NCBI RefSeq assembly: GCF_026571515.1
Contig: NW_026852812.1
Coordinates: 126,256 to 190,255, forward strand
DNA: 64,000 bases
Origin: Ruditapes philippinarum
Lineage: Eukaryota
Direction: 5' to 3'
The position numbers were made by a program, and so were the translations under genes. This document shows, one piece after another, positions 8,471 through 45,535 of this stretch (its first letter is position 1; each line of letters starts with the position of its first letter). The notes under the pieces are model-generated. The model did no database searches. It worked only from the letters and a program-made list of their open reading frames with translations, and was not told where the DNA came from.

Positions 8471-11400
8471 ATACATAAGAAACAGTTACCACTTGCTTAG
8501 TTTAATCAAATTCTTAAAAATTAAAAGAGCAATAAAAGAAAAGGGCAATACTATTTGCTTTTGCTGACATAACTCCAATGCTGACATAAATCCAAATTAA
8601 AGTGTTACAAAAACTTACTAGTGGCTGGCACGTCTAATCTCGGTCTCTTCACTGCTTGAAACGTTTTGCCGTTTTCCATGAAGCGTGGAGTCACCTCCAC
8701 TCAGTTATATATGTAAACCAGAGTCACTGCACTTCTGAGCACTAAAGTTACACAACCTGAAAGTAACAACATTTACATATAAATGGACTTTTCCAACAGT
8801 GTATTGCCTTGGCATAGGGTATCAGGATAGCGTTACCTTGAAATAATTTAAAGTCCATTGCTGGATTCAAGTAGAGCAGATTTGAAATTGGTGAATTAAG
8901 CCACTCAGACACAGAGATTAAATTGCTACAGCATTAACAAGATACAAGTCAGTGACCTAGTTTTTATTTCAAATGACCTATTATTCAAACCTGAACCTAT
9001 ATCATCAATAAAAAGATAATCAATTTTAATGTCACCACAATATTTCTTAAATACTATCACATTAAACACTGACCCCCTTTTTTTTGACCTCGTATATCTT
9101 ACAGTCAACCTTGACACAGATATTCTCCAGACAAAAATATTTTCAGCATGTTTAAAGAAGGACCAGATCAAAAATTTCTGAAGTGTTCACAAGGCTTTTC
9201 ATTGCATGGGCCTTATGAATTTCCTTTAAAACTTTAACCAGTCTTATCTGAACATAACATAGAAATATCATGATTGACACAAATATTGTAGTATTGAGTG
9301 ACTAATGAGTGATTTTAGCCAGTACCATGATTTTTTATATTTAAACTTCACCTAGAAATAATTAATGCAAAATGCTCACAAGATTTAAGTAAGAATTGAT
9401 TAAAAGTTTTTAAATAAAAAATTTTATTATGTATTACAAAAAATTCTAGAGTACTTTTCAATGATCTTTTTTTTTTTCAAAATTTATTTCAGATTTTAAA
9501 ACTTAGGGGGAAGATAAAGTTTATACATGCTGATTATCCCCCTCCCAACACAAGCCTACACAACAAAACCTGACTTTTTTAATATCTTTAAAACCAGTTG
9601 GCTCTGCAAAATGTCATGCCCATGTATAACAAATAATTTTCACCCAATATCTCAAAATGACAAGATTTACAGTATGGGATATACAGCCTGATTCAACACA
9701 GCATCTCTGTCTGATGTAACATATTCCAAATACAACACATCTAATCAATTGTCTACTAAAGCTTCCTAGAGAGTGGTGGTTTTTTTTTGCTTTTCACAAA
9801 ATGTGATAATAAATTTTGCAAACAATTATGCACTATTTGTGTGAGCAGAGCTGCTTTCTATCAGATGTACAGTCTTTTCTAAACTGTACCTCTTTGAAAC
9901 CTGCTCATGGATAACAGAATTTACCTGTGTTATTTCCTCTCTCCAAACATTTATAAATCACTACATCAGACCAGATGGTATTATTACATGTATATTGAAA
10001 TAACTTACAAATCCATGTTCTCGCTGAAAAACAACATCTTCTTCAAGAAATTTGTAAAAAAAAATTTCATTGCTAGGGTGGGATTTTAATTCTATGTCAC
10101 ATTTAATAAGTTTTGCTGCTTATTTTCCAAAAACATTCCAAAGATTTAAAAATTCTATTAGTCCGCTGCATTAAAGAGAACTCGATGGATGAGTGACTCT
10201 GAAAATATTTTTCGATGCCTGCATTCCTTGCCAGAGAAAATGTGAAAAAAAATTCAGCTCAGAATGATATAAATTTTATTTTGTTAATTCATCAGCAATA
10301 ACCATCTATGTACTAAAAACTTTCATCATATTCTTCCTATCAGATTGTTTATCTTTTAACTATACAATTATTAAACTGTCATTATGTTATGCAAAGCATA
10401 CATTTTATATATTATAATTCATATCCCCCCCCATTTGCCCTATAGACATAAAATATTTACACTGTTAAACTACACACTACCACTTTATGCACAATATTAA
10501 CACGAGCTCATTTTTAGTAGCGAATATCATTATTACAAGGTTACGCTTAAATCGAAAACGAACATTTCCACAAATACATACATGAGGTATTTATTGTTTG
10601 ACCTACAAACTTGCACACTTGTCGCATTTTCCGCTTTACTGCAGTTTCATATATCACAAACAAGATAAAGAAAATAAAACATGTACGGACAATGAATGGT
10701 TTACCTCGCTAACATTAACAGCTTATTGCATGTAACATTTTACTATCTGTTGCAATGCGGTTAAATAACCGATAACTCGGTATTTATTTACATTAATATC
10801 ACCATGTATAAGCCATCGACTAAATCAATAGAGCATTTATCTAACAGAAGTGTAAGGCACTTCACGTAACTAAAGAAAAGAACCAATAAAAGCAAATAAC
10901 CTTTACTAAATTTCTCATTGTTAAACGTCTCTCTCATGTATCTCAAACTTGGTCAATACACATGTACAATTTCCGATCAGATGTTTTTGAAAGACAAGCT
11001 TACAACCGATGCGATGCGGCTGTAAAAATCAATATTCATACACAGTGATAACTGACTTAATGTTTCTAACCGTCTGTGAAAATGACCTCATGCAGTACAA
11101 GGAAAATTCACGCCCTAATAATACAGAAAAGAATTTTCATTTTTGATCGCAAACAGATTTACAATGACAACATTGTTTCCATCTAAAATGATAAAATTTA
11201 ACAGTGTTTAAATTCACTCTGTAATGGCGGTAAAAACATTCTATCAACCTAATTGTTACCGTGTATAAATAGATAAATAGGGGGAGAAAAAATAATAAAC
11301 AGATCTGTATTTAAAATGGCATTCTGATCTATTGAATACTTGTACTTTTAAATCCATCTTACAGCTATGATATTGTTTTCAATGAAGTCTTTTGATACAG

Positions 11401-12369
11401 TGATATCAGAGAAAGATATTTACCTGTTGTCTTGCACTGAGATGACAGCTAAGGAGAAGGTGGTTTCCCTAGGGTACCAATGTCATTATGGTAGGAGACA
11501 TAGTTACTACATTGTTCTGGTCCTGAAAGAAGAACAAAATCATATGTTTAATATTCCTGAATTTATGTTATAGACAGACCCTTACCACACTAATTATCTT
11601 AAATGGACTTGTCCATCTTACTATCTGGACAAAACCATTTATCAAGTGAAGGGGAATTTTCACTAGCTGAAATAGTGAAAATCACGATCAGACGGCACAG
11701 GGTGCATGTGTAGAATCACTTGCCACCGATGACAATATAAAAATTCTCAATAACCCAGTAAAGTACTTTCACATCCCCCCCATTTTTTTTTTAAAACTTG
11801 CTCTTTCCTAAACCAAAAACTATACAAATTTCATTAACATAAATTTCCTTGTAATTAAATCCACTTGTACTAGTAGTTGTACACCAATTTTCTGCTTTTC
11901 ATTATATTTCTTTTTCTGTCATCATAAGCAACCTTGCTCACAATTTTAACATTTAACTTAGTTAAATATATTACTATCATTCTGCTTAATTTAAATATTT
12001 TATTTCAGTTTTCCTCACAAAATGTTTTTTTTTTATCAAAAACATCTCTAAGCTTCACAATATCATTTCTTTTTTTAATCGATGATCCAATATACATGGC
12101 CATGTCTAATTCATATCCCAAATAAACTTCACAGAAACCATCATTTATATCCCTAAAGCTCACAGCAGTCTTTTACAACTGGTGATGTCCCCCAGCAGAG
12201 AAATGTATCATCTGGCATGGACTAATATTTGTCAAGAATAAACATTCATTCATTTTCTTCAGATATCTACCCAGAAGTAAACATTTCATCAACATTCAGA
12301 ATCCATTCATAACTGAATCACCTGCTTGTATCAATAAAAAACAGAAGTAATTTGTATTCATTCAAGTCA

Positions 12370-12750
12370 AATGATGGTATCCATAAAGAACTTTAAATAA
12401 TTTTTGATGGTATCCATAAAGAACTTTAAATAATTTTATCAGGAAAAGCACTGGAAATTCAGTCAAATACTGGTATCCATAAAGAACTTTAAATAATTTT
12501 ATCAGGAAAAGCACTGGAAATTCAGTCAAATACTGGTATCCATAAAGAACTTTAAATAATTTTATCAGGAAAAGCACTGGAAATTCAGTCAAATACTGGT
12601 ATCCATAAAGAACTTTAAATAATTTTATCAGGAAAAGCACTGGAAATTCAGTCAAATACTGGTATCCATAAAGAACTTTAAATAATTTTATCAGGAAAAG
12701 CACTGGAAATTCAGTCAAATACTGGTATCCATAAAGAATTGTCAACTTGT
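12370..12750. repeat. Tandem repeat with a 63-bp unit in about 6 copies, followed by a degenerate older array to about 13110.
   Basis: The unit is tatccataaagaactttaaataattttatcaggaaaagcactggaaattcagtcaaatactgg. ORF 12362..12745(-) is an artefact. Degenerate (c/t)ataaagaa units continue 3' of the array. Confidence 0.9.
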
Positions 12751-15296
12751 CCAGTGGCTGTCATCTCCTGGTAACATCAAAGAACCAAACATCAAATTCA
12801 GAATTATGTTATTCGCTGGTAGTCATAAAGAAACTTCAAAATTTCAAGTCAAAGTCAGTTATCTACTGGTGTTCATAAAGAACCAAGCAAAGAATTAAAA
12901 GTTCAGTAAAATTCTAGCATCAATAAAGAATCAAACTTCACGCATGAATATTGTAGTTTTCATAAAGAACAAAATATCAGAATTCAGTAGGTGTTGTTTT
13001 TTTTGCTGCCAGCATCAATAAAGAAACTTTATAACCCATAAAGAAGCAACCATCAAATTAATAGCTTTAATAAAATCCTCCTTTGATATCCATTAAGAAC
13101 ATTTTCACTATATGAAATATCCATCACTATTTACTCCATTGAGAGGAAACTTAACAATCAAATCAGTTGTTGTTATTCATTTATGTCCAGATTTAAATAG
13201 TTCTTTAAATCTTTCCTTCTTTTATAATCTAACTGGCAACTGGCATGCAACTGTCATAATTACTTCACCTTTGATATCACAAACCCAAACTTTAAATACC
13301 TACCTGTGTTCTTTTTAAATAAACAATTCAAAGCACATTTTCAGTCAAACAAGTTAAAAGAGTACATCTTAATTCCAAACAGTTCAGAATATAAATTATT
13401 AATCAATATCATACAACTTCAATGTACCAACACAAAGGTTTTCCAAAGTAAAGACAAGGTTAATGTACTAAGGCTTTATATATACATGTATATATATGTT
13501 TAAGTTTAGATTTACAACTATATTATAATGTACATGAGAATATTATATTGATGTAATATCAGTATCAGTTGACATGATTTTCAGCTAACTACCTGATAAC
13601 GAAGGCAAAGGAGATAAAGGCGGACACTTTATATATCAATAGATTCCACTTGCTAAATATTTAACTATAATTCAGCTAGTCCTTCCTATAATCCAATACA
13701 AAACCAATTTGCCAAAATATCCTCAGCTATAAATAGCCTGTAATCTAATATTCATTACACAAAGAATGCACACTCATTAAACAATGAAAAAGACAGGTTT
13801 AATACACGTTTTAACGGTAGTCATATATTGTGAAATGTTATTATGAATGACCTGCTATTATTCCCAGTTATTTTACACACACACGCTTTTCACCACAACA
13901 CAACTCTACACAAACACTTCCTAAATCACTGGCTATGACTTGTGCACCCACGCATGACTTAAATACTTCAAACAAGTTCACGATCAGGTTACTGTGCACT
14001 CAAAGAAAACATTATAGTGATACCATCGGACATGTACAAACAATCCTCATGTATAAACAGTACACACTCACAATCACCGCTGTTTCAACTGAGATAATCT
14101 CCCTAGTCATAAATGTTGGGGGCCCTCGTGTAAAATTTCAATACACACACGAAATCTGAAGATAATTTCACCAATCTGCACTGTAAAATGATACAATCTT
14201 GCCTGAGAGTGTTTTAAGTTTTTGTTCTCCATTCGTATAATTTAGCATTAACACAAGGGTTAAGAAATTCAAAATTACAATATTATAATCTGTTTGTTAA
14301 GCTCTATTTCATTTCAACCACTTAAATGAAAATGTTTATAAAATATAATGAATACAAAAAAAGAAAACATGATTAAAAGGAAAAAGAGAGCATAATGTAG
14401 CTACTGAATTATAGAATTAAACAAAAACTGATATATGTTTTTTGTTATTGGAAAAAAATTATCAAAGCAGTAAAAGTAAGTATAAACCAGTCTAGGCTAT
14501 AGACTATTGTGGTTCTACACAGGCTATTATAATCAAAGAATAATGTACTGGGGAATGCAATTTTTGAATTTTTAAAAATCAGTCATTGATACTGTTTTGC
14601 CTATCATAATGACACTTTTTGGGGATTTTTTTTTAAATCGGAGTGTATGAATAAGGAGGGGGTGGGGATGAAGATGCTACATTACAGTACTGCTCAGGGA
14701 ATCATTACTGCTGCAGTTTTTATTCTTGTGGCAAAGGATATATACATATTTAAAACAATTGTAACAAATGTTAACGAGGAGCCCCTTTCAACTAAATAAT
14801 CATAATCAACCACTAATTAATAACACAAATGAATGTGAGAACTTTGTATAAGTTTCTAATTATCCTTAAAATAGCTCAGTTTATACCAGCATAAAATACG
14901 CAAATTAAAAATTTCATTTTGCCATACTCTTTTTAAAGACAGCTCAGTAGATGACTAACACAGAAAACATTTACACAATAACACTGGTATAAAACCAGAC
15001 AGTAAAAACAAGTCGAATCTAAAGCTCAACCTCATGTACATAAATCAGACTTGCCGTCAGTTTCTAATGCTGTGAACTGTGTAATAATATTTAACGTAGC
15101 AGTTGTAGGCCTTGAAAAAAATCCATATTATAAAATATTATCTATATATTTTTTACTTTTATAACATATACAAGCAGACAGATCTTTAATTTATAAACAA
15201 GCAGCTGTAACAAAATACTCAATAATTACATTGAATTTTTTTTTCTGTACAAACATGTTTACAAATATAGACTGTATATATATATATATATATATG

Positions 15297-15533
15297 AAAT
15301 GAGCCGTGTCATGACAAAACCAACGTAGTGCGTTTGCGACCAGCATGGATCCAGACCAGCCTGCGCATCCGCGCAGTCTGATCAGGATCCATGCTTCTCT
15401 ACTTGCTATAGGGTTTGTAAACAAACAGCATGGATCCTGATCAGACTGCACTGATGCGCAGGCTGGTCTGGATCCATGCTGGTCGCAAACCCATTATGTT
15501 GGTTTTGTCGTGACGCGGCTCAAATAAAGATAA
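15297..15533. mobile_element. MITE of family A, about 240 bp, with long TIRs of the form tgagccgtgtcatgacaaaaccaac...gttggttttgtcgtgacgcggctca.
   Basis: The TIRs are near-perfect over about 70 bp and the element is foldback-like (ccagcatggatccagaccagcctgcgcatc... mirrored). Related copies lie at 48104-49680 and 56888-57128. ORF 15191..15451(-) is an artefact. Confidence 0.85.
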
Positions 15534-17169
15534 CATCAGAATTGTATCGATTTATATCAAGAGAAAATGTTTGTACTGTTTCTGCACAATGTTATATTTA
15601 TAATATCAAATGTCATGTTTTTAATTAGCTTGTTCACTTTCCGTCTGCAACATTTTACAAACTGTCTAAATCATTTGCCATTACCTATGTATAAATAAAC
15701 TTTTTTTTAATCACAAGTCAAATAATCATACATTTTGTACATGAACCTATTTTATAGGTTAAGTTTAACAATGTCTTAACTCATAATAAACAAAATTCAA
15801 AAGAGCATCCTTACCTTCACTTAAATAAACCCACCAGAAAAAAGACCCTGATTTATAATACTAATCCTAACATTAAACTTAAAAAATTTTAAATCAATAA
15901 ATAAAGTGATCATCAATTGAATGTGTTGTAAAGTACAAAATAACAAAGGATTATACATGAGCAGTTTGCTTCAACCACCAATTTATTCATACCGGGATCA
16001 ATAATCAAGATTCGTAATCGCAATATACAAACATTGCTTGTCCAATAATTTCCAATCTCACCGACTGTACATGTATGTTTGAAAATGTCATGATAACTGC
16101 AATCTGTACCACCGATAAACAACAAAGACTACAGCCATCAGTTAAGAACGAGACATTATTTCAATAATAGTATTCTACGGCACAATTTTTGTACATTACC
16201 AAGCGTCTGTAACTCCCCAAAAAAGATTTCCCTGTCACAAGGAATTCCTGATCCAAGAGGAATTAATCATGCATATCCATAACACTCCCCCCCCTTTCCA
16301 AACACATTATTCCACGCATTAACTTCATGAATTATACTACACACAAATACTATGACCTAAATATTGCTTCACTTACATTGGTATTTAAGCCTTCTCACTC
16401 AGAGAAAATTGGGTCCTCGAATCCGCTATTTAAAAGTTTTTCAATAAAGCAAATTAACAGAAGAAAACAGAAAGTACACGAGTATTAAAACACTACTGTA
16501 ACACTTCCACACGCTGACTATTGATCAACATTTAAGATACACTACCCTTTTAACCAACAACAAAAGCTTTTCTGTTTAATCTAGTCCATATATAAAACCC
16601 ATAGTACATTAAACGTTAACCTAGTCAAGTGAACGCTTTGCGGTATAGACAACTGGTGCTAGACACACACACTACATACATGATTATGTAGACAGTGAAA
16701 ATATTTCCCCCGTTCTTCCTTTTTTTTCCAGCCAGTCCAGACTGTGTTATATTACGAGAAAACATTATTATTAATTTGAAAGAATATATATAGCAGGTCT
16801 GGCTCTGATGAATTAGAATTGCAATAAATAAAGTAAAGAGAAATTCTTTTAATAATATAAAAGAGAAATTTAATTTCAACCAATTTAAATCGAAATAAAG
16901 ACGTAATTAATTCCTAATAATAAGCCTTCAGTGACTTCCTCGGCAGTTTTAGAATTTTTTTACAGTTCTTTAATCTCAGTTATCAACTAAAGTGAGTGAA
17001 CATGCTTATTATTACAATTCAAAACAACATAACAAAGTGTCATAATACTGTCTATTGCATTTACAGTAAAACTTGTATGAAAGGACCAAGATTTAAGAAT
17101 AGAGCGACAGCCACCCTTGCAGGTAATTGGTCTCTGAAATTGTACTTTCATTATTTTGTTGTTCTTAGA

Positions 17170-20589: not shown

Positions 20590-21480
20590 TAGCAGCAAAT
20601 TCTTTTTTCTATTCATTTTTGTTTCTCATGCTCTTCCATTATCTGATATATTTTGCTACTTATTAATTATGCTTAACCATGGTCTTTGATCAACATTTTT
20701 TTAAGTTACTTATAGTCTTTATTAACTGCCATATTATGCTAATTATGCTCTTCCATGGTCTGTGATAAGCCTTTTTTATTACTTATGCTCTTCTATTGTC
20801 TGTGATAAACCTTTTTGTTACTCATGCTACTCTACTATACTGTTACTCTACTATTATTTGTGATGATTTTTATCTGTTGCTCATGGTCTTCCATGATCTG
20901 TAATAAACCTCTTTTGTTACTAAACCATTTGTTACTCAAGTTGTTACTTATGGTCTTCCATGGTCTGTAACTAAACCATTTTTTTGTTACTCTTGCTCTT
21001 CCATTGTCTGTAATAAACCTTTTTTGTTACTCATGGTCTTCCATGGTCTGCATTGAACATTTTTTGTTACTTATGATCTTCCATGGTTGTCTGTAATAAA
21101 CCTTTTTGTGTTACTTTTGGTCTTCCATGGTCTATAATAAACCTTTAATGTTACTTATGGTTTTCCATTATCTACGATATTTTGTTACAGTACTTATGCT
21201 CTTCCATAGTCTTTGATAAACCTTATTTGTTACATATGCTCTTCTATTGTCTGTGATTTTTTTTGCTTCTCATGCTCTTCCATGATCTGTGATAAATCTT
21301 TTGTTACTTTACTGACCAATGCTCTTCTATTGTCTGTGATAATGCTTTTTGTAACTCATGCTCGGTCATTGTTGGTTATATTCTTTTTTTCGTTACTTAA
21401 GCTCTTCCACTGTCTGTGACAATCTTTTTTTGTGACTCATGTCCTACTGAGATTATCTTTTTTGTTTCAAAACTGTGACA
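20590..21480. repeat. Tandem repeat with units of about 55-65 bp, ttgttactcatg(c/g)tcttccat(t/g)gtctgtgataaacc(t)tttt, in about 15 copies.
   Basis: Seen directly in the sequence. ORF 21213..21419 is an artefact. Confidence 0.85.
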
Positions 21481-22059: not shown

Positions 22060-22560
22060 CGGTGCCAGAGTTATTGATCTTGGTCAGCCATCTACAAGTA
22101 AGAGTTATGGGTCTTGGTCAGCCTACAAGTAAAAGAGTTATGGGTCTAGGTCAGCCATCTACAAGTAAAAGAGTTATGGGTCTAGGTCAGCCATCTACAA
22201 GTAAAAGAGTTATGGGTCTAGGTCAGCCATCTACATGTAAAAGTTATGGGTCTTGTAAAAGAGTAATGGGTTTTGATCAGCCTACAAGTAAAAGTTTAAG
22301 AGTTATGGGTCTTGGTCAGCCATCTACAAGTAAAAGAGTTATGGGTCTTGGTCAGCCATCTACAAGTAAAAGTTATGGGTCTTGTAAAAGAGTAATGGGT
22401 TTTGATCAGCCTACAAGTAAAAGATATGGGTCTTGATCAGCCATCTACAAGTAAGAGTTATGGGTCTTAGTCAGTGATCTACACATAGGAGTGTTATGGT
22501 TCTTAATCAGTGAGGTACAAGTAAAAGACTTTAAAGGTCTTGGTCAGTGACCTACAATTG
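22060..22560. repeat. Tandem repeat of about 38 bp, ggtcagccatctacaagtaaaagagttatgggtct(a/t), in about 12 copies with a higher-order structure.
   Basis: Seen directly in the sequence. ORF 22062..22436 is an artefact. Confidence 0.9.
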
Positions 22561-25500: not shown

Positions 25501-27559
25501 GCCTTCAACAATTTACAGCAAAAAATGTTTCTAAGCATGCCCTGGCCTATATTTTTAAATTCAGCTTAATGAACAATGAAAATCAAACTGCAACCTTGAC
25601 CTCAGTTCTAAATCCTTTCCTGTCTACAAGCAAAGCATCTAGGACCTTATAAAAAGAAATATTTCTCAAATACATATTAAGTTTAACATGCAATGTTGAT
25701 GCAGCATCCTCCTTTTATTCGGTCACAGCTCATTTATAAAAGCCACTTATTGTATTGCTTTGGTAACGGAGAAAAAAATAATGTGTGTTCAAATTGATCC
25801 GACATACGGTAGTGAAATATTCCAAGCATGCGACTGGAAACATCATCTAAGAAATGCAAAAGCTTAGTGCAATATAATATCGGGCTGTATTATACTGGGC
25901 CGGCTATAATTATTGATCAAGTTATACATGCCAGAACAGCTAAACATCACAAAATCAATGATAAAACATGGGTGATCTATTCGCTGTTCTCTCGTCTTTC
26001 AACAAAGACCTTGCATAATAATTCTACATGTACAAAAAATAATTTTGAACAAACAAAAAAATAAAGAATTCTATTAATAAACTTCTGTCTGAATAATAAT
26101 GAACTTGAATCATGAACAGGAACCAGTATGATCATAGCATAATACTATGACATCAACTTTTCTTATGTAATGTATTTTATCAGCTGTTTATTATTAGAAA
26201 ACAAGCAATATCAAAATACCAACTATAATTTCAGACAAAAAATGCATTTATTGAAAAATTTTCAAAGACAAACACTTATTTTTCACAATTACCTAAAAAA
26301 GAGAAATCCACTTCCAAAGGGAAGTAACTTTTCTCTGATGAAACTATTTATCAACAGCACATATAGGTTTACTTCCCCTGATCATCATCTCAGAATATTC
26401 ATAATACATGGTAGGAGCATTTTGTTTGAACAAATGTCAGTATATATGATAACACCGACATGCAAATAATTAGCTTTTTACTTGCATAGGATGACCTCAA
26501 GTGCCTAATTTGTGCATTGTTGGTGTAGAACCACTATAATTCCCTTTAATAACTAGCTAAATAGTTTCCTGGCATGATCCATAGTCTGAATTCAAACACG
26601 CTGCTATGAGGGGCAACTGACCAAAGATACTCACTGACCACAATAACTTTACCAGAGGGACTCTTGAACTCTAAAAATTCCCAAAATACAGTCGTTTTTG
26701 GTTCCAACAAAATTTAGGATATAAATATATGCCCATCTCATAATATATGTGTCATAGCCAGGGCCAAAACACCATTTTTGGGGAAGGGGCCTCAGTCTTT
26801 TTCTTGGGGAAATATGCGTGATTTTGGCATATTTTGGGAAAAGGGGTCTTAAATTTAACACAAAATTTTAAAAATGTTCTTCAAAATAGAAAAGCAAAAA
26901 GCACTGGGAAAAACTAATAAGGCAGTAAAAGACCCTAATTCAACAACATCATTTAATTTTGTTCTAAATTCTATGAGAAATTTCAAAAAACTGGGGAATT
27001 TTGAGGACCAAACTGGGGAAAAAAAGAGGCTAGTTTGGTTGGGGAAGCAGCCTATATTCGGCCTCTACAAAGAAGGGTTTTTTGGCCCTGATAGCATACA
27101 CAGATACAAAGTTGATCATACAAAATGTTACAATAGACAGCTTTAGATGAAAAGATAGCACAATTTGAATTTTACAACTTTGAATCTCAGTGAATCTAAT
27201 TGCTAAATACTTCACAAGTTACATGTGGAAAAACTCAATCAAAGTACATATTAAATGCACAATCACAACAGGTCCAGTGCCGTAAGTTTGACTCCATCTC
27301 ACCTGCATTCTTGTACTTTAAAGCAGCCTTCAGCTTTTCTTAAGGTTAAACATGTTATTTTAAGATAAATTGTTTGATATAATTGTCAAATCAAAGGAAT
27401 TAAGGTATAAAATGAAATTCCCTGTCCATAAAATACATTAACAATAAGGTTCCTCTCTCCTTGACACCTCTAATCTACCAGTCTGCTCTCTATTATATAT
27501 GTAAATAAGTAAAGCAGACGATTCCTTTCCCAATTTTCTATTTTTAGAAACGGACGTCA

Positions 27560-28140
27560 CAGCATGCTATAAATAGCTCTCGAGAAGTCTTAACAGTGTT
27601 TCGATGTACTTTTCCTGCAGGGTAATATTACTGAAATACTTACTTTGAAACAGCTCAGAAATGTTTTTCTTGCATAGCAGACTAGCGTTTCCGTGAGTTT
27701 TACCCATGCCGGAAATTTCATCTGGCATGGGGGGTTCCAGATGAGTCGCGTGCCAAACAACAACGTCATTTTACCGCACTTTATGGATGAACCGCGTTAA
27801 ATTGACGTCGTTTTAGAAGGGAAATATGTGCTTATGATGACGTCATTTCACTGTTGTTATTTAAGTTGTAAGTTCATACGCTATTGTAAGAAAATAGTAA
27901 TGAATGAAATGACTTTAATTTTCATGAACATATATCGCATTGAGGTAAACCATTTTAAATATGAAATAATATGGCAGAATATGCAAGAAAAAATATCTGA
28001 CATATGTTTGCGGTTCGGATCGGAATATCCGTCCCTCGGGAACCCGCCCATGGGCGGTAACTCGGCAAGCCTCGTTACCGCCCAAATGGGCGGGTCCCCT
28101 CGGGACGGATATTCCGGTCCAAACCGCAACATATGACAGA
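27560..28140. promoter_or_regulatory. CpG-rich island-like block with a TATA-like ctataaatagctc motif, a CRE site and a long palindrome at its 3' end. It may be an orphan promoter or a young transposable element.
   Basis: The CpG dinucleotide density is far above the flanking sequence. ctataaatag is at about 27573 and TGACGTCA is at 27838-27845. No coding homology was detected nearby. Confidence 0.3.
27998..28135. repeat. Long imperfect palindrome (foldback) of about 138 bp with nested GC-rich palindromes, ccgcccatgggcgg and ccgcccaaatgggcgg.
   Basis: The arm catatgtttgcggttcggatcggaatatccgtccctcgggaacccgcccatgggcggtaactcggc is mirrored as gcctcgttaccgcccaaatgggcgggtcccctcgggacggatattccggtccaaaccgcaacatatg. 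ORFs 27828..28136(+) and 27881..28132(-) are artefacts of this palindrome. Confidence 0.8.
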
Positions 28141-29640
28141 TATTATTATTCCAACAAAATATAAAAGCAGAAGGCCGCTTTAATGCTGCTAGAAAAGAAT
28201 TTAAATTATAAATATACTTGAAGACAACATGCTTATCTACAGTGGCAAATTGGAAAAATCCATGAAATACAAATTACATTGTTTTATGGACTGAAGTGGG
28301 GACCCAATTATCATGTCAGAGTTATACAGTTACAGTACTAAGTTACACCCTCAACAAAATATCTATGGTATGTCCTTTAACAAAGGTGCAATCTGTTGCC
28401 ATACCCAGGCTTCCTGCAAAATTTCGAACATCTGAAATATCAGGTGACTTTCATCAAGCTTGTTCAGCCATTTTTTGTTTGTGAGAGTCAAATCCTTTTT
28501 GCCACGATTTATGAAAGGAAAATATCAAATTTCATGTTACAATATCATTCAGCAACAATTTTTTTTCCAGTCAAAACATATGAACTGCTAGATGATTACA
28601 GAAATCTTGATTATTTTTAGCGCTTGATGATAAAACAAATGCCGCAAGATATTGGAGGCAACTTGTAAGTCCACAAAAAAGATTAATTAAGTGAAAATTA
28701 GTGCTTAAGTTAACTGTCTTGGTCTCCCCAGCAGTACTTTAAAGTTTAATATGCTGCTGACCGTTTCAATCAGATGTATGTCTTGTTTTTTGTTACATAC
28801 AATTGTGGTGACACTTAGTCCCTTCTTGTTTTTCTGTCTATAGTAACTATCTCCCCTTTCCCCGCCCCCCAAGACTTTCTTAAATTCCTCACCCGATCCT
28901 TCTGGCCTTGTGCTTTTGTGGGTCTTTTGTTTCATTCTAATCTGATATTAACTTTCATATTTTTTACACAATGACCTACCATTTTAACCAGTAAAACTTC
29001 AGCACATTAGGGGTGCAAGGATTCACTAAAGTAAAAATATACCTGAATGCACAGCTTCAGATCAACTACCCTACTTTGATTTGGTACTTCAAGCCACTGT
29101 CAAAGAGCACTTTCAGTGATATTATCCAATTATAGTAATGTCATTTCATTGAAAGTGTTGCATGTAAAGAGAAACAAAAATGACAGATGAAAATAAGCTT
29201 GCTGTTCCACCTGAACCATTTAAATCTAGTGCAATGCCAAATTTTGGGTTTCCCCTACTCTGTTTTTCTTGCCCTTTTGATGCAATGATTTCACCAATCA
29301 AAATTTTGGGTTCAGGAAAATTTTCGGATAAATTCAGAGTTTCCCCTACTCAGCATTTCTTGCCGTTTGATGCAATGATTTCACCAATGACGCATTGAAA
29401 TTTGCAATTCACGCTTTCTATAACCCAGTTATAATCTTCCTTAATTGGATGTCTTTTCATTATAAAGTTATTTCTACCATAATTAGCGCCATCCTGTTTC
29501 AATCGGCAAAATTTCCAGTCATTTTATTATTTGTAAATTGTTATTCCAAGAACACAAAATGTCCTATTTGTATTCCAGTTTTCAGTTAGGTACTTCATGG
29601 CACTTCTGAAGGAGAGCGCTCGTCATGATATCATTCAATC

Positions 29641-30259
29641 AGGCCTAAAAAAAAAATTGATGTGTTTCTGGTGGCGAGGTGAAAAAAGTAGGGTCGGTAG
29701 GTCGGACTTTTTTTTTTTTTTTTTTTAGTCAATCAACGATTGTAGATATGTCAGATACGGATTATATGTACTTTAAATTATATTCTATAGCATATAAAAG
29801 TACTTAAAATGTTAGACTACCAAACCTAGTCTTCAATATTTTATTTTGAAATAAATTTTACCAATGGCATGACTCGACTTTCGTTTTCATTTTTTTTATT
29901 CTTACCGAACAACTGGCTTCAATTTTAATATTATCACTCTTAACATGACCATGCACGTCCGAAAAATGTTTTGAGCTGTTTTGCCAAACTATGATCGTAT
30001 TTTTAAAGAAAATCGCCAGCAGTGACACTTCCGCTGCACCCTTGTTGTGCCGCCATATTAGCCGGTGCACGTTAATACGTAATTGGAACCCGAATCGTCG
30101 GTGCCTCACATCGTTGTCGACTCGCAATACTAAAACCCGTCTTCGGTACGGTCGGTACAGGCGCCATTTTTTTTTTGTACATCGATAAAAAACTTTGGGT
30201 CGGCGCTAAAAAATAGGGTCGGTCGGGCCACCGGAAACACAACATTTTTTTTTAGGCCT
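29641..30259. mobile_element. MITE of about 620 bp with roughly 35-bp TIRs of the form aggcctaaaaaaaaaattgatgtgtttctggtggc...gccaccggaaacacaacatttttttttaggcct.
   Basis: The TIRs are read directly from the sequence. A possible 3-bp TSD, TCA, flanks the ggcc ends, and the subterminal repeat gggtcggt(c/a)gg occurs on both sides. ORFs 29858..30127(-) and 29991..30188(+) are artefacts. Confidence 0.6.
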
Positions 30260-30967
30260 CAGAGAGCAAAAATTCATTAAGTGTGGCATGTAAATAGAAA
30301 TAAGTCTAGAAGTCCAAATTTAGGAAGCCTTTTGAATTTCAGGGGGATAAAAGGATGCATGCACGAGTCTTCTTTGACAGGTACACACACTGGCCGTTGC
30401 TTTCGCAGAAGTGGTGGGTCAACCGCAGCAAGGTTGGATTAAAAATGGCCCTTTGCTGTTGTTGGTAAGTTTATGACTGAATTTAACTTTATGTTTTAAT
30501 GTTTAACTAGAAATACCTAGTGAGATGGAAGCCAACATATGTCCATAATTCAATGATAATACAATGAATTCAGTGTTGAATCTAGGCCACTTGATTACGC
30601 GATTTGCGTATATTTTATGCACATTGTGCATTTTAAAGAAGTCAATGCGCGCCAAGTCGCGCATCTGATGATCTTTTCAACTTAATTCAGGTTATCTTCA
30701 TCGTATCTTGAATGCTTCAGCCATGTTTGTTTTCACTCGCGGTTACAACTAAAATACGTACTAAATCGCATGTAGCAGCAAAGGGGATCATCTCGCATAC
30801 ATGTGTTTTGTAGTATTCATCAATATTTTATTTTTCTATTTCTGTTGTTGTTTGACAATAGCTGTCAAAAATGCCTGAACGTAAAATAGTGAATTCTTTT
30901 AGGTATGTCATATTGTAAGGTAAATGTCCCCCATATTTTTCAGAAATAATTATTTAATGGCCATTTC

Positions 30968-31448: not shown

Positions 31449-32966
31449 GAAGTCTTAGTCCAATAGATTAGACGTTACAGGCTTGTTATAGTTTTATGTT
31501 GGTCAAGCCTGACGTCTAATAGTTATTGCTCATAAACGCGTAGCATTTTGAAAAATTAAAAAACTGTCTGTTGGCTTGCCTTTCAAGCTTTATTCAAAAG
31601 CTTATTTTCTGTTCTTTCAATTGCATGGTCTATCATTAACAAAAACTTTCAAACAATGTACTTACCAATTAAAAATAAAATAGAAATATCAGTCTATTTC
31701 GCTCATCGGCCATACTGGTTAAGTAAAGCGTTTTACAGATTGATTCCAATTTTTTGAACGGAAAAATATATTCGAACACACTGACGGTGCATGGGCAATT
31801 ATTTCGTTAAAAAAATATTCCGTTAGAAACTTCTGGACTCATTTAAACGCTTGCATTTGTATTAGCCAATCAGATTTCTCGCACTTTATGGCGGCCATTT
31901 GTATATCGGCTGTACAAGGAATTTAATTAAATGAGAGGATTTAATCATGACTTTTCGGATGTGACAGTTAAATTATTTTGTTAAAAGGTATTTATTTTTT
32001 AGTTTTGTTTATAAATAGGTCAAAATTAATGTAAATACAGGCTGTTTTAATTGTTTAAATTCATTAGATCTAAATCGATGTCTAATGTCATTTTTTTTGC
32101 TACACGATTTTGCAAAGATCTGTTAAGACCTAACGTAACATGGAAAATGAAAAATGTAAAATATCAGATTAATGAATGATGAATATGAAATAGGTTACGT
32201 ATAGGTCTTATAATTAGGACTAGGGAAGTCTGTGTTAAATGGAAGAATACAGCACTATAACTAGTCTCAAGAGGTGAAAACTACTATATTGTGACATAGA
32301 AATGACAATGCTCAGTTTGGGACCCTAATAGGGTTTGATATTTTCCTGATTATCCTGTGCTAGGATGTCATGCACTCACTTTTCACTAAATTTGGAAGGG
32401 GTTCCTAGCCTTCAGAAGAAAATGGTTGTCAATACTATAACGAAATACTTGTACAATTCTGAAAAAGGAACTTTCAATACACTTAACACATATATACATA
32501 AATTGTTAATCACAAGGATCTTATCAAAATATCTTAATTGCAATCAATTTACAAATTCACGTGCACTAAAAAGTCATAACAGCCTTTGTTTGGAATGGCA
32601 AACTACAAACAATATCTTACTGTTCTACGGTTTTACTACAACTTAAAATTAATCACCTTGTATGTCTGGATTATAATTTTGCGATGTCAATGGCGAAATA
32701 GACTTAATGGATCAGCAACACAGTATTTTCTTTGAGCTTTTCCGCGGGATTCCTCGCGCTATTCAGTTGAACTCTTACAAATGTTAGTTCTCGTTATTTC
32801 ACGAGGGATACGAGATATATATTTTTTTTATCAAACATATATTTTTTTATTTGAACTACTAAATTGTAACGTTACATTTAAGAGGAACATTATATTTCTA
32901 TGTTTATGTTATATATTTTGATAAAGAAAATAATTATAAATTAAAACTTTCATTTTGTAAACAAAT

Positions 32967-33005: not shown

Positions 33006-35039
33006 GTTAATTTTAAATTATATTAAAGATTATTGCTATATAAATAGCGAAACTTGAGCAACAATGTTTAAAATTCAGCTTTCTTCATATTTCTTGCATG
33101 CAAGAACTCATGTCTTTATTTAATTACGAGATAAACATAACAAAGTTTTCAGGGTGACAAGGAATTTGTAATGGGGGTGATCTCAAAATTACCATTGATT
33201 GTCAAAAATTGCAATCAAAATAAAATTCATTGTCGTGTAATACTGAAAAAATGTCACTATGTTTATTTGGCCCTTAATGAGATATAAGACTTTGATGATC
33301 AACAATCACACTTTAAAGATTTGAATCATCTGTGAACAGCTATTGGAAAAAAAGAAATTTTAATAGCTTTCTGTTAATACTTTTTCTAGCTTAAGGTCTT
33401 CATGGTACCCATTTATATACTATGACATGACGTGAACGCTGACGACAGACCTGTAGGGAAAGTCCACCAATAATCGTGCCAGGAATCTGACACGCTCGTA
33501 TTCATTCATTGAACATGCCATGAAGTAAAGTGAAGCATACTTTGATAAAACTAGATATATAATCTGTTGATAAGCCAAGGATGGACAAATAAATATAAAC
33601 ATATTAATAAATTACTTTTTTTAAAGATATTGAAGAAGGTGATTTATTGACTTTTGTATTCAATATAATCATATTTAAGTACTAAAATATTAAATTAATG
33701 AAAATCAAATAAATAAAAACATTATCTTGAATTATAAATATCGAAATCATGTCAATAAACTTAAAGATGTTCTAAATATAGTACACGACTCTACTCTGAT
33801 AGGTTCCCGGGAATGACGTCATACGAGGTCTCGTGTGGCACCTAAATGTCATGGCCAACTGTACTAGGCATAATTGATGTTTTACAGTTAAATAGGCAAT
33901 TTTAATGACGGTATTAATATTTTGATACTTTAAATGGCATAAATTATTATTAAAATAATTGTTTTATCGCAAAATGCACAAGAATTGATTGGGACAAGGA
34001 TATTAATTTTGCAAGTGAAAAATAAGGTTAAATCAACTTGTGTTATTCTGGTTAGGTTTTGTAATGGGTCTAATCCAAAACTAAAATGCCGCATCAGGTG
34101 AAAAACAAAAATATTGAAAAGCGGCTTATAAAGTTTTGGAAGCCAGAACTATTCTTTTTCATGCATACATCTGACATAGAATTAACTATACTTGTATAGA
34201 TGCAGGGCTTTTTTTCCTTCTATAGCAGTGGCCAGTATAGGGCTGCTTCCCCAAAGAAAATTTATTTAAAATCATGCAGTTTTACCCAAAAAATGAATTT
34301 ACATCAAGTTTTTTCTTCCCCTTTAGCAATATACCGTGTATTTTTTCCCCAAAATTAAGGGCTTGGCTGCTTCTCCAACCTGTTAAGAAAAGCCCTGAGA
34401 TGTCTTTTCCCGCCTTTTCACCCCCGCCCCCTTCCCCCATTTTAGGCCACAAATAGTGAAAAAAATGCCCTATTTAGTCACCAAAAACTTGTTTTCATTT
34501 GAAAAATTATCACTTTCGGCACCATCTGGTATCAAAAAGATACATCGAGGGGGTGCCAGAGAGGGGGGGGGGGTGATGTCTCCCTCTGTTTCAGGGTTTG
34601 AAGGGTGTCAGCAGACCCCCTTATCTCAAAGAAAATTGTGGACTTGTAAGAGGCTAAAAATGGTCTCCGGTCAACCTTAAAGTAATATATTACAAATGCT
34701 AAAAAGCCTTTGACTCTATCCCAATCCATTGAGAAGTTGCAGCACTTTGAAATCAGCTTTGATGGAATAGTCATTGCAAAATAGTGATTTTTGCAATTTT
34801 GAGATGTCCTCTCATTGCCATGGTAACAGGAAATTTAAGATTGAGTAGGCCATTACTAAGGCTATAGTCCAGTCAACATTTGAGCCACGTTTGAACAGAA
34901 TTGAAGCTTTTTTTAGCTCACCTGAGCACGAAGTGCTCAAAGGTGAGCTTTTGTCATCACTCTGCGTCCGTCGTGCGTCCTTCAAAAAATGGCGTCAAAC
35001 TTTTCAAACAACATCTCCTCCTAAACTACATGGCCAATT

Positions 35040-36280
35040 GCAACCAAACTTTACAGAAATGATCCTTAGGTGGACCCCTTTCAAAGTTGTTCAAAAATTT
35101 AAATTCCATTAAAAACTCTGGTTGCCATGGCAACCAATAAGAAAAACTTGAAAAATCTTCTTCTAAAAAACCGTAAGAGCTAGAGCTTAGATATTTGGCA
35201 TGAAACATCTTCTAATGAGTGCCTACCAAGTTTGTTCAAATCAAAGCCCTAGGGTCAAAATTGGCCCCGCCCCAGGGGGTCATTGATTTTCCCTATATGC
35301 ATATAGTAAAAACTTAAAAAATCTTCTTTTAAAGAACTCAAAGAGCTAGAGCTAAGATATTTAGCATGAAACATGTTCTAATAGGTGTCTACCAAGTTTG
35401 TTCAAATAAAAGCCCTGGGGTCAAAATTGGCTCCGCCCCGGGGGTCATTGATTTTCCTTATATGTGTATAGCAAAAACTTAAAAAAATCTTCTTTAAAAA
35501 AACCCAAATAGCTGGAGTTTAGCTATTAAGCATGAAACATCCTCTAGTGAGTGTCTACAAAAGTTTGTTCAAATCAAAGCCCTGGGGTCAAAATTGGCCC
35601 CGCCCCGGGGGTCATTGATTTTCCTTATATGACTGTGTATAGCAAAAACTTAAAAATCTTCTTTGAAAAAACCCAGATAGCTAGTGTTTAGATATAAAGC
35701 ATGAAACATCTTCTAGTGAGTGTCTACCAAGTGTGTTCAAATAAAAGCCCTAGGGTCAAAATTGGCCCCGCCCCAGGATGTCTTTGATTTTCCCTATATG
35801 CATATAGTTAAAACTTAAAAAATCTTCTTTTAAAGAACCCAAAGAGCTAGAGCTAAGATATTTAGCATGAAACATCTTCTAATGAGTGTCTACAAAGTTT
35901 GTTCAAATAAAAGCCCTAGGGTCAAAATTGGCCCTGCCCCCGGGGGACATTGATTTTCCCTATGTGCATATAGTAAAAACTTAAAAAATCTTCTTTTAAA
36001 GAACTCAAAGAGCTAGAGCTAAGATATTTAGCATGAAACATGTTCTCATGGGTGTCTACCAAGTTTGTTCAAATAAAAGCCCTGGGGTCAAAATTGGCCC
36101 CGCCCCGGGGGTCATTCATTAGCTTGATTTTTTTTGTTAAGATATATACATATTATATATATACACATATATATTTAATATTTATATATATATGCATGCA
36201 TACATATACAACCAAGTTTGTTCAAATAAAAGCCCTGGGGTTTAAACTGGCCCCGCTCCAGGGGCCTATATACAGGTGAG
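35040..36280. repeat. Tandem satellite of about 195 bp with roughly 6 units, in MAEA intron 1. It is preceded by a hairpin plus the gcgtccgtcgtgcgtcc leader at 34915-34990.
   Basis: The unit is ..gtttgttcaaat(c/a)aaagccctagggtcaaaattggccccgccccagggggtcattgattttccctatatgcatatagtaaaaacttaaaaaatcttcttttaaagaactcaaagagctagagctaagatatttagcatgaaacat.., seen repeatedly. The AT-rich block 36120-36220 interrupts the array. Confidence 0.85.
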
Positions 36281-37701
36281 CGACTTTGGGCCATCATGGC
36301 CCTCTTGTTTATAGTTTCATACAATCATAGCAATTTGAACTTGTAACAAGAGGCTTTTCAATGAAAACAGCCATTTTTTCACAAAATGCTCATGAAGAAA
36401 TGGGTTAAAAGTTAAAATTATGCTAATGAGAACCCTGAAGTTAATCTTTAATATAACACTGTTTCACTTTAATATTATTTCAAAGTACAAAGAAATTTTC
36501 CCTTTTCTTGAACAGATTTTTTTTTCAGAAATAGAAAGAAAAAGAATTGAAAAGGGAATCCATGGGGAATTTCAACCTAAATTTGGCCCTTAAAATCACT
36601 GGCAGTGGGTTATTAATGACTCTAGCAGCATTATCTAATAACTCATCTGTCCGTGACTCTTTCCTCAGAATTATGAAACAAGAATTTAGCGTAACAACAA
36701 TATTGTAGCAGTGCATAAATACATGTACATGTATTGTAATTTTCCCTGTTAACTGTGTGTGTTATTCACTTTACACTACCTCTGCTACCTGTTGGAAACC
36801 AAAAGTGGTTAAATACATGTAGCTTTAGCCACCAGAATGCTATTCTGCACTTCCATATTAAGCATGGTATAGACTGTTCCGGATTCAAAGCTTGGCAAAT
36901 CCATTACACAAATTCAGTAGGTAAAGGGTTAAAGTAACCACCATTTCCCCATGTGATTTCGTTTTCTAACTTTTTGAAGGCAATATCATCTTCTATACTT
37001 TAGTTTTCAATTGATAAACACAACAACTACAATATCCATGGCCACGCAAACATGTAGATATAGAGTTTGATGCATTTCAGAAAACTTTTAAAAATCTTTT
37101 TAAACACTGAAAGCTATATTTAAATCATAATTGAGAGGAAGCTTTGACATCATACACGTAAAATCTCTACTAGGGATTTATTATCCTGCAAGGTTGCATT
37201 TTCATGCAATTTTTCAAAACCATGTTTGACACAAGAACATTTACTGATACCTACTCCACTATTTTTTCTTCATTTGTTATGGTAAACAAAGAAGAAGTTG
37301 CCAAAATGTAAAAAAAAAAAAGCAATACAGATAAAGAAGATGTAAATTATTCTCAGAAATAGATGAAAATGTCAACACTATTTCATGTTGCATTTTGGAG
37401 GCGGGTTACGATTATCTAGTGATTAGTGAGTTAAAATGTTTTCATACTAAGCTTTGAAAATTTTTGTTTACTAATTCTGACAGGTACATTTAGAATATTT
37501 ACAATCGTACATGTAAGTGAGAAATTATTCAGCTTGCTTTAAATAGCTTTATGACAGATTGATGATTCGATTATTCAGCTGATATTCAGGGAAGTTTGCA
37601 TGGGAGTTTTCCTTCACTGCTGTAGCTTGAATGTCACCATACAGTGGTAAAACTTGTACATTAAACTTTTTAAAAAAATCCACAAGTTTATTATATTTTA
37701 G

Positions 37702-40739: not shown

Positions 40740-41470
40740 CTTAACAAGAAAATTGGCAGGATTGTTCCTTTGGTGAAGGGCTTCCAAAGTTGTTCAAAGA
40801 ATTTGATTCCATGCAGAAATCAGGTTGCCATGGCAACCAAAAGGAATAATAAGAAAAAATTAAAAAATCTTCTTGTAAAGACCAACACGGCCTAGAGCTT
40901 AGATATTTTGCATAAGGCATTGTCTTGTAGACCTCTTCCAAGAATGTTCAAATTATAGCTCTGGGGTCAAAATTGGCCCCGGCCCAGGGGGTCACTGATT
41001 TTCACTATGTACATGTAGTAAAAACTTAGAATATCTTCTTGTCTGAAAGTACAAGGCTTAGAACTTTGATATTTGGTATATGATGACATCTATAGGTCCT
41101 CTACCAAAGTTGCTCAAATTTTGCCACTAGTGTCAAAGTTGGCCTGTCGGGGGGGGGGAGAAGGGTGGGGGGCTGGGAGGTCATTGATTTTCCATATATG
41201 TATATAGTAAAATCTTTAAAAATCTTCTCTGAATTGACAAAGGCTAGAGTCTAAATATTTTGCATAAGGTATTGTCTTGTAGACCTCTACCAAGATTGTT
41301 CAAATTATAGCCCTGGGGTCAAAATTGACCCTGCCTGGGGTCATTGATTTTCACTATGTGCATATAGTAAAAATTTAAAATATCTTCTTGTCTGAAGGTT
41401 CAAGGCTTAGAGTTTTGATATTTGGTATATGATATCATCCATAGGTCCTCTACCAAATTTTACCTCTAGT
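40740..41470. repeat. Related satellite array of about 200 bp with roughly 3.5 units, in MAEA intron 3.
   Basis: It has the same leader (ccaaagttgttcaaagaatttgattccat...ggttgccatggcaacc) and the same core (ggggtcaaaattggcccc.g.ccagggggtcactgattttcactat) as the 35040 array. ORFs 40741..40941(-) and 35026..35208(-) translate to similar pseudo-proteins. Confidence 0.8.
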
Positions 41471-44560: not shown

Positions 44561-44794
44561 GTATCCTTTATTCATACAAGTCATGGTAGTTTTGTTTAAA
44601 TGCATTTGTTCTTGCTTGATTGTGAAGAAAAAGTTTGAATGTTACCCGAACTACTTTCAAGTCTGCTTCTTTGAACTAATCACTACTGGTGTCATATGTG
44701 GAATCAAGGTTATGACTTAAGGAGAGTTCAAACACACGATCTGTGTGTTGAGAACACTGTTTACTCTCTGTCTTTTCTAGAACTTTATTGTCAG

Positions 44795-45535
44795 TAAATC
44801 AAAGTGTCAGAGCAAATATAATATTGTCAGTGCAAGAATTGTATTGTCAGTGCAAGAATTGTATTGTCAGTGCAAGTATGGACCATTCCGGTTTTTCGTA
44901 GCGGAACATTTAGCCACACCTTTTCCATTCATTGCTAGGTCAACTGCTCACAAACAGTATCACAAACAAAACCATGTGTTCTTTTGTGCAAACCAGGTCA
45001 ACCAGTGACTATGTATTATCTCAGTGTAGTAATTGGATATCAAGTTAGCCAATTTCTATAAATCTGTAAACACTGGAAAGGTCCATTGTATTGTTAGTGC
45101 AATAATTGTATTGACAGTGAAAGAATTGTATTGACAGTGAAAGAATTGTATTGTCAGTGCAATAATTGTATTGTCAGTGCAATAATTGTATTGACAGTGA
45201 AAGAATTGTATTGACAGTGAAAGAATTGTATTGACAGTGCAAGATCTGTAATGTCAGTGAAAGAATTGTATTGTCAGTGCAAAGAATTGTGAAAGAATTG
45301 TATTGTCAGTGCAAGATCTGTAATGTCAGTGAAAGAATTGTATTGTCAGTGCAAGAGCTGTAATGTCAGTGAAAGAATTGTATTGTCAGTGCAAGATCTG
45401 TAATGTCAGTGAAAGAATTGTATTGTCAGTGCAAGATCTGTAATGTCAGTGAAAGAATTGTATTGTCAGTGCAAGAATCGTAATGTCAGTGTAAGTATTG
45501 TATTGTCAGTGAAAGAATCGTACTATCAAAAGTAT
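44795..45535. repeat. Minisatellite with a 20-bp unit (attgtattgtcagtgcaaga and variants) in about 36 copies. It lies in MAEA intron 7 and ends about 60 bp before the exon 8 acceptor.
   Basis: Direct visual periodicity. Variant units include gaaagaattgtattgacagt and gcaagatctgtaatgtcagt. Confidence 0.9.

Follow-up and report, generated by a model that had tools for sequence, protein, structure and literature searches.

In this work, we analyzed a 64,000-nt stretch of Ruditapes philippinarum DNA (assembly GCF_026571515.1, contig NW_026852812.1, positions 126,256 to 190,255 of the forward strand; hereafter the window), centering on a CpG-rich block at 27560-28140 which a sequence-only reading had described as isolated and as carrying a TATA-like motif, a cAMP-response element (CRE) and a 138-bp nested palindrome. 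The window is AT-rich eukaryotic DNA (GC 33%; CpG observed/expected ratio, o/e, of 0.45) with one open reading frame (ORF) of more than 130 amino acids (aa), the longest reaching 137 aa. At the locus lies a repeat unit bounded on the left by a T run and a short terminal inverted repeat (TIR) and on the right by a very long palindrome (Table 1). This unit is a recently inserted copy of a non-coding, multi-copy transposable element (TE) of about 485 bp. That it is a TE of some kind is close to certain; its architecture points, with a probability of roughly 0.7, to a non-autonomous, HINE-like member of Helitron-like-element group 2 (HLE2; Helentron/Helitron2).

The CpG-rich block and the repeat unit within it

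All motifs listed by the sequence-only reading occur where it had placed them (ctataaatag at 27567-27576, TGACGTCA and, at 27705-27729, catgccggaaatttcatctggcatg), as do the two inner GC-rich palindromes ccgcccatgggcgg (28044-28057) and ccgcccaaatgggcgg (28078-28093), and the CpG enrichment is real, with 31 CpG in 27560-28140 and an o/e of 1.24 there. The block is, however, neither isolated nor a single entity: the DNA at 29.6-31.9 kb is equally or more CpG-dense, a homologous second unit (copy B) is found on the minus strand at 6957-7379, and the block itself is composite, as the TATA-like motif and the first GACGTCA (27553-27576) fall outside the repeat unit (copy A). Within 27545-28151, 29 of the 33 CpG belong to the unit (27666-28151) and just 4 to 27545-27665, and the element is flanked by CpG-poor DNA (3 CpG per 545 nt and 1 CpG per 249 nt); the CpG richness stops at the element boundaries. 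The family consensus (484 nt) contains 31 CpG (o/e 1.39), 28 of which are retained in copy A, which differs from it at 11 of 422 non-CpG positions (97.4% identity). In other, older copies as many as half of the CpG are gone, mostly turned into TG/CA. The apparent island thus arises because a young copy of a CpG-rich consensus is set in CpG-depleted surroundings: it is the composition of a young transposon insertion and not a property of the locus, the enrichment belonging to the inserted repeat. TGACGTCA occurs four times in the window against 0.34 expected, and three of these occurrences are within the two repeat copies. Upstream of 27665 nothing is common to any other copy. The motifs GGACGTCAC and CTATAAATAG are part of the unique flank and precede the insertion point by about 90 nt, and the second of them also fits the MEF2-type CTA(A/T)4TAG pattern.

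Table 1. Coordinates of the repeat unit, of its second copy and of other features of the window (subTIR, subterminal inverted repeat; IR, inverted repeat; MITE, miniature inverted-repeat transposable element)
Feature	Position	Strand	Remarks
Copy A, ~485-bp non-autonomous element	27667-28151	+	Boundaries from multiple alignments
5′ TIR TTTCTTGCATA (T run + subTIR)	27666-27676	+	Pairs with 27980-27990 in consensus fold
Two overlapping small 5′ hairpins	27703-27743	+	Consensus alignment and fold
First 5′ hairpin, CCCATGCC...GGCATGGG	27703-27731	+	"Small palindrome" of the sequence-only reading
Second 5′ hairpin, CATCTGGCA-TGGGGG-TGCCAGATG	27719-27743	+	One arm mutated to TTCCAGATG in copy A
Middle palindrome, ACGTCATTTTA(g/c)CGC ... 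GCGTTAAA(a/t)TGACGT	27763-27808	+	15-bp stem, consensus fold
Full CRE-like octamer TGACGTCA, third ACGTCA motif	27838-27845	+	Conserved in both subfamilies
11-mer TTGTAAGTTCA	27866-27876	+	Identical in copies A and B; splice-donor-like
3′ subterminal inverted repeat TATGCAAGAAA	27980-27990	+	Exact reverse complement of 5′ terminus
3′ palindrome, 66-bp stem	27992-28144	+	Apex 28062-28073 (TCGGCAAGCCTC); 4-7 nt from 3′ terminus
TTC trinucleotide, 3′ junction	28149-28151	+	Last 3 nt of element or target-derived
Flanking, non-element DNA	27551-27576	+	GGACGTCAC and, 12 nt on, CTATAAATAG (the "TATA-like motif")
Copy B, older diverged subfamily member	6957-7379	-	Same layout as copy A
Parts of copy B	7379-7369; 7210-7200; 7123-7113	-	TTCTTGCATAT; TTGTAAGTTCA; ATATACAAGAA; also three ACGTCA motifs
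Palindrome of copy B, ~130 nt	7102-6971	-	Apex TCGGCAGAGCCTC, near match to TCGGCAAGCCTC of copy A
Textbook HINE	34910-36310	+	T run + subTIR AGCTCACCTG (34915-34924); adjoining IR AAGGTGAGCT (34940-34949)
Textbook HINE, 3′ part	36273-36281; 36288-36302		3′ subTIR CAGGTGAGC; 15-nt palindrome GGGCCATCATGGCCC; then 8-nt tail TCTTGTTT
CpG-rich element, ~620 bp, probably a MITE	29641-30259		~35-nt TIRs (AGGCCTAAAAAAAAAATTGATGTGTTTCTGGTGGC ...)
Sole ORF >130 aa	44307-44720	+	Pfam CTLH/CRA PF10607, E = 3e-8, residues 39-86
Palindromic/MITE-like repeat family (AAAACCAACATAATGGGTTTGCGACCAGCATGGATCCAGACCAGCCTGCGCATCCG ...)	15300-15553; 48103-48357; 49542-49682; 56857-57111	both	
Short tandem arrays	4922-5260; 7980-8488; 12345-12808; 20616-21455; 22069-22557; 44767-45594; 59901-60442; 62243-62760		Periods about 23, 38, 63, 40, 36, 20, 145 and 157 nt

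Copy B was retrieved when the locus was compared with the window by lenient blastn (E = 2e-20, 64% identity over 316 nt), and the two copies have a common order of parts, namely ACGTCA motifs, TTGTAAGTTCA, an A-rich stretch and the palindrome. For a wider search, we translated a spurious ORF running across the hairpin (27828-28136) and compared it with a protein collection, which returned 33 "hypothetical proteins", all of them from JGI metagenome data and devoid of Pfam domains; they stand for at least 33 additional copies in one metagenome. Eleven contigs were fetched, all from JGI sample 3300049158 and each of 6.3 kb or less. They are AT-rich (GC 32-36%), essentially gene-free and have other interspersed repeats in common with the window, and we therefore regard them as host DNA from a related organism. 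The copies they carry are 80-96% identical to copy A, their intact 5′ ends beginning at the equivalents of 27665-27667 and their intact 3′ ends stopping at those of 28147-28156. The sequence-only reading had held that many copies elsewhere would tell against anything but a plain TE, and many copies were found. In a scan of metagenome DNA with a 23-nt conserved pattern, the only match was in contig L004, the collection scanned evidently being without the copy-bearing sample; that match (905-927) is a chance one to an unrelated bacterial coding sequence, murC-like by eye, on a contig of 48.5% GC. A full-text search of the literature for CCGCCCATGGGCGG gave no matches.

The ends of the element are well defined, except that in copy A the 5′ start may fall anywhere in the T run at 27664-27668 and the 3′ end is either 28148 (...ATTATTA) or 28151 (...TTC). 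Conservation of the 5′ terminal repeat extends to 6-8 copies and, but for one mismatch, to copy B; that this 11-mer should recur by chance in inverted form within 484 nt has a calculated probability of about 1e-4. Between the two repeats, the middle palindrome provides two of the CRE-like ACGTCA motifs, and an AT-rich spacer separates TTGTAAGTTCA from TATGCAAGAAA in the consensus. The latter repeat ends 2 nt upstream of the 3′ palindrome, which is followed by the consensus tail ATTATTA(TTC). The trinucleotide at the 5′ junction is TTC in 8/8 copies. At the 3′ junction NTC follows ...ATTATTA in 9/10 copies, being TTC in most of them but also GTC or ATC; it is absent in L012.

Evidence of insertion was obtained from the flanks. 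No flanking-sequence duplication was found in the 7 copies with both junctions readable, and none showed a target-site duplication (TSD) longer than 3 nt. The joined flanks of nine copies were then compared with the sequences in hand, and one genuine empty site was recovered: L003 carries the two flanks of the L006 copy without interruption (79% identity over 253 nt, E = 6e-60), and there ...GCACTT/ATC CTTCTC... (slash, junction) corresponds to the filled ...GCACTT[TTCTTGCATA...ATTATAA]ATC CATCTC.... A further match, in L001, was discarded as an artefact of boundary choice. This paralogous empty site shows insertion. Its single ATC matches the atypical ATC of the L006 copy, which suggests that the last three bases of the element may be target-derived. 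The locus thus displays a dispersed multi-copy family with fixed ends together with evidence of insertion.

A long and structurally constrained 3′ palindrome

The foldback that the sequence-only reading had measured as 138 bp does exist, far beyond chance, but it is longer: 66 pairs spanning about 153 nt. As single-stranded DNA (ssDNA), it folds with -68.3 kcal/mol, where dinucleotide shuffles give -23.3 ± 3.0 (z = -15.1), and the palindrome of copy B folds with -36.2 kcal/mol (z = -7.7). It had also been called nested. The inner GC-rich palindromes are indeed present, as one self-complementary 14-mer per arm, but this reading of them is weak, since a cloverleaf or T-shaped fold (-53.8 kcal/mol) is 14 kcal/mol less stable than the linear hairpin (-67.7 kcal/mol) and copy B does not have them.

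We analyzed the covariation of the paired positions by aligning eight hairpins and scoring them on the copy A fold. Pairing is retained in 88% of the cells, and 15 of the 66 pairs have changed on both sides, compared with 4.9 ± 1.7 in shuffled alignments (0/500 reach 15) and 2-10 in slid controls. Between copies A and B, 29 pairs are unchanged, 13 have been kept through a double change and 2 through a single change, and 19 are broken; the subfamilies are 58% and 51% identical in the two arms and 67% in the apex. Pairing is therefore maintained while the sequence of the arms drifts. This would be expected if the folded strand is required by active copies, or else if one arm serves as template for the other, and both explanations imply that the hairpin forms in vivo. 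Deletions centered on the apex were found in L002 and in L008-L011, as expected because long palindromes are unstable. In addition, L006 holds a rearranged copy (893-1563) that runs from the 5′ end into the palindrome with its apex inverted ("flop") and then, at the microhomology AGTTA, jumps back to the equivalent of 27871 and continues to the 3′ end, an arrangement that fits template switching or recombination at the palindrome.

Affiliation with Helitron-like elements and competing explanations

Helentrons and their HINE derivatives have been described as having 12-15-bp subTIRs, a 3′ palindrome, boundary T strings, a T-rich or TT target and no TSD (PMC4067079, PMC7492417), and Helitron2 as having an asymmetric TIR and hairpins at both termini (PMC5148889). 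The family at this locus is in agreement with most of these descriptions: (i) the left copy of the inverted repeat (TTTCTTGCATA) is terminal and the right one (TATGCAAGAAA) internal, near the 3′ end, as in HLE2, (ii) the 3′ palindrome starts 2 nt past the right repeat, even though its 66-bp stem is far beyond the published 5-10 bp, and (iii) a 5′ boundary run of 2-5 T is found in all copies. With the HINEs (Helentron-associated interspersed elements: Drosophila DINE-1, mite HINE-Mo, oyster Cg_HINE or "pearl"-type; PMC4067079, PMC7492417) it has in common that the elements are short, non-coding and multi-copy, that a 5′ T string is followed within 0-3 nt by an 11-15-nt repeat, that near the 3′ end an inverted copy of this repeat comes before a palindrome with a short tail, and that there is no long target duplication. 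It differs from them in the stem (66 bp, or about 153 nt, against 5-10 bp), in the distance of the right repeat from the 3′ end (about 160 nt against 38-60 nt), in the 3′ junction (NTC and not a simple T) and in lacking an IR adjoining the 5′ subTIR (its small 5′ hairpins are not complementary to the subTIR), a microsatellite and central tandem repeats, so that it is not a HINE in the strict sense of DINE-1 or Cg_HINE. The likeness to Helitron2/HLE2 (Chlamydomonas Helitron2, Fusarium FoHeli1/2, Xenopus HelenXT; PMC5148889, PMC11417382) lies in the asymmetric TIR, with its left repeat terminal and its right repeat internal and followed by a stem-loop, in the hairpins near both termini and in the lack of a TSD longer than 3 nt. 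Those elements, however, have short hairpins and are defined together with a Rep/helicase ORF, whereas no such ORF is known in this family, and the FoHeli1/2 ends (TCAG...ATTTT) differ from its own. Helitron1 resembles it in the apparent lack of TSDs, in a 3′ hairpin near the end and in a T-TC 5′ end, but in this family there is no 3′ CTRR, no A-T target (the flanks are mostly T and T-or-N), a TIR is present and the palindrome measures 153 instead of 16-20 nt (PMC4067079), so that the combination of 5′ TC, 3′ CTRR and A/T insertion that marks canonical Helitrons (HLE1) is not found here.

A textbook HINE in the same window, about 7 kb from the locus, shows that Helentron-type elements are present in this genome. 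Its layout is that of the family under study, save for the palindrome length and for the IR and tandem repeats, which this family does not have. Its array of 166-bp repeats is homologous to the Crassostrea gigas Cg170/HindIII satellite (score 66 against at most 21 for shuffles), which makes a bivalve host very probable, and repeats related to it were also seen at 40855-41460. The subTIRs of the two elements are unrelated, and in the Cg_HINE supplement the subTIR of this family has merely incidental matches within Cg170 monomers.

Several observations weigh against placing the family among the Helentrons and Helitron2. The T-T target rule is followed only loosely, the 5′ flank ending in T in 5/8 copies and the base after ...ATTATTA being T in 6/10, in a small sample with a 3-nt ambiguity of the boundary; the TC that constantly follows ...ATTATTA is outside the published rule and leaves room for a 3-nt duplication. 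With 11 nt, the terminal repeat sits at the lower limit of published lengths, the palindrome exceeds by far those of the HINEs and HLE2 described in the cited papers, and the 484-nt consensus, which was built from just 13 sequences with copy A among them, contains no central tandem repeats or microsatellite. Copy numbers and the target rule rest on the same 13 sequences plus one empty site. The 5′ and 3′ ends were assigned by analogy, and the reverse orientation would give the layout named "HLE2-reverse". Besides, an autonomous partner with Rep/helicase was found neither among the ORFs of the window (137 aa or less) nor in the fetched contigs, which carry the short form only, so that the superfamily was assigned solely from architecture.

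Alternatively, the family would belong to another, possibly undescribed, non-autonomous class, such as a foldback element or MITE with a 3-nt TTC duplication, or a palindromic MITE fixed inside another short repeat, its likeness to Helentrons then being convergent. We consider this unlikely. The length of the palindrome is typical of foldback elements and MITEs and not of Helitron-like ends, and no Rep/helicase partner was identified. Each junction has a TTC-like trinucleotide, and the single empty site has one as well, which leaves room for a duplication of 3 nt or for a cleavage motif common to these sites. If variable targets were truly duplicated, however, the pattern should be different, as the 5′ trinucleotide is invariant while the 3′ one varies, and the two fail to match within 2 of 6 copies; with the TTC removed, the ends are without a terminal inverted repeat. 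The palindrome and the 300 nt upstream of it have the same arrangement in subfamilies only 64% identical, which excludes a recent nested insertion. A Tc1/mariner-type MITE with a TA duplication was rejected, the flanks showing neither TA nor any other duplication. Very unlikely is the proposal that the locus is an orphan or non-coding RNA promoter, or a CpG island, an unmethylated regulatory block in which TATA box and CRE sites drive a local transcript. A GACGTCA does lie 12 nt upstream of CTATAAATAG, three ACGTCA follow downstream in CpG-rich DNA, and a transposon copy may act secondarily as a promoter. Against this as its primary identity, nearly all of the CpG are inside the transposon boundaries and are explained by a CpG-rich consensus in a young copy, the TATA-like motif has no relation to the repeat and falls beyond its limits, the ACGTCA motifs characterize the whole family and recur in dozens of copies, two of them as palindrome arms, and neither an Rfam family nor a nearby ORF with a Pfam match was detected.

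The remaining explanations take the hairpin as their starting point. A duplicated family of hairpin RNA genes (microRNA, miRNA, or other hairpin-RNA precursors) is highly improbable. The very stable 66-bp stem kept by compensatory changes and a sub-threshold Rfam match to mir-4672 would suit it; that match scores 44 bits where the gathering score is 98, falls well short of the threshold and simply mirrors the GC-rich nature of the hairpin. A miRNA is expected to have conserved arms and a free loop, but here the arms are no more conserved than the apex, many copies carry apex deletions, and the hairpin is invariably accompanied by one and the same 330-nt module upstream and by the fixed element ends. 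With Rfam 15, the whole window gave no matches at gathering thresholds and the locus nothing meaningful at E <= 10 (mir-4672 being the best); a tRNA scan found none, and a Pfam search of ten ORFs around the locus, including both hairpin ORFs, returned only the unrelated CTLH exon at 44.3 kb. Superficially, the terminal-type palindrome of about 150 nt, with its inner palindromes and the ATF/CRE-like sites beside it, recalls a parvoviral inverted terminal repeat (ITR). Accordingly, a relic of an integrated parvovirus, densovirus-like or other hairpin-ended ssDNA virus was considered, and the inner self-complementary blocks, the neighboring ACGTCA motifs and the apex of copy L006a, which is in the inverted ("flop") orientation, fit with it. 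It is nonetheless barely conceivable, and the ITR reading was rejected: no NS1/Rep or capsid ORF is near (the longest ORF in 64 kb, of 137 aa, has no Pfam match of that kind), the hairpin sits at one end of a 485-bp unit that is present in dozens of copies and has a different, unrelated and defined other end, the branched fold is disfavored and is not conserved, as subfamily B lacks the inner palindromes, and the 24-nt apex has no match in 2.9 million viral contigs (IMG/VR).

Taken together, these results identify an ordinary transposon and not a promoter, an origin or a viral relic. The origin-like or cruciform-forming element proposed from the sequence gives way to a young multi-copy transposon, and the "young, unmethylated TE terminus" was right as to a young TE copy, as its identity to the consensus and its retained CpG indicate, and wrong in that the element is complete, with both ends. 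Within a known kind of transposon, the unusual trait of the family is the long, structurally conserved 3′ hairpin. The outcome is mostly a clean negative: what looked like an orphan CpG island with a TATA box, CRE sites and a cruciform is a young transposon. Masking of the family should therefore precede any annotation of promoters, origins or viral relics in the genomes of molluscs.

If the family is indeed a Helentron/Helitron2 derivative, transposition would take place in trans, by a Rep/helicase (HUH, Y2) transposase and through a single-stranded, rolling-circle-type intermediate. The left terminal signal would be the 5′ T run plus TTCTTGCATA, the right repeat would be marked by the inverted copy TATGCAAGAA, and the palindrome that directly follows would correspond to the 3′ stem-loop that accompanies the right terminal signal of Helitron-like elements. 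What is recognized may be the folded single strand and its tip, because both the pairing and the apex (AACTCGGCA.AGCCTC.TTACC) are conserved across subfamilies while the drift of the arms is compensated. More speculatively, the nuclease might nick on the 5′ side of TTC at either end of the element and in the target. This would fit the position of TTC, which forms the first bases of the element at the left junction and the first bases beyond its 3′ end at the right one, and which is present once in the empty site; its recurrence at both junctions provides a concrete cleavage-site hypothesis. Equally speculative, the three conserved ACGTCA motifs might be transposase-binding repeats or remnants of the promoter of an autonomous parent. 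Under a Helentron/Helitron2 origin, the stem would be about 10 times the usual length, kept by 13-15 compensatory pair changes and crowned by a conserved apex, and the family would offer a natural test case for the contribution of the 3′ hairpin in Helitron-like elements, be it through structure, tip sequence or both. It is tempting to go further and regard the family as a distinct rolling-circle (HUH-mobilized) lineage in bivalves, in which the right-end signal has become a perfect hairpin of about 150 nt with a sequence-specific, conserved apex, and which has a fixed ^TTC cleavage motif common to left end, right end and target, but we hold this to be rather improbable. If true, the mechanism would be closer to those of hairpin-guided systems (IS200/IS605, IS91 and parvoviral origins) than to that of described Helentrons, and the long stems, which form double-stranded RNA when transcribed, could seed host small-RNA loci.

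Other features of the window

The second CpG-rich block, at 29.6-31.9 kb, is partly explained by the probable MITE at its left side (Table 1). Inside it, first-exon- or promoter-like sequences were noticed by eye only at 30380-30475 and 31860-31950, examples being ...aaaaATGgccctttgctgttgttgGTAAGT near 30446-30475 and a CCAAT-like gccaatcag with "atggcggccatt" near 31866-31900. The CTLH-matching ORF probably belongs to an exon of a gene with a CTLH domain, of which it would be a part. The AAAACCAACATAATGGGTTTGCGACCAGCATGGATCCAGACCAGCCTGCGCATCCG family is present in at least four places, and some of its copies are foldbacks with 93-96% complementarity between the arms. Among the short tandem arrays, the one with the 157-nt period, at 62.2-62.8 kb, also occurs in metagenome contig L002, with 68-75% identity.

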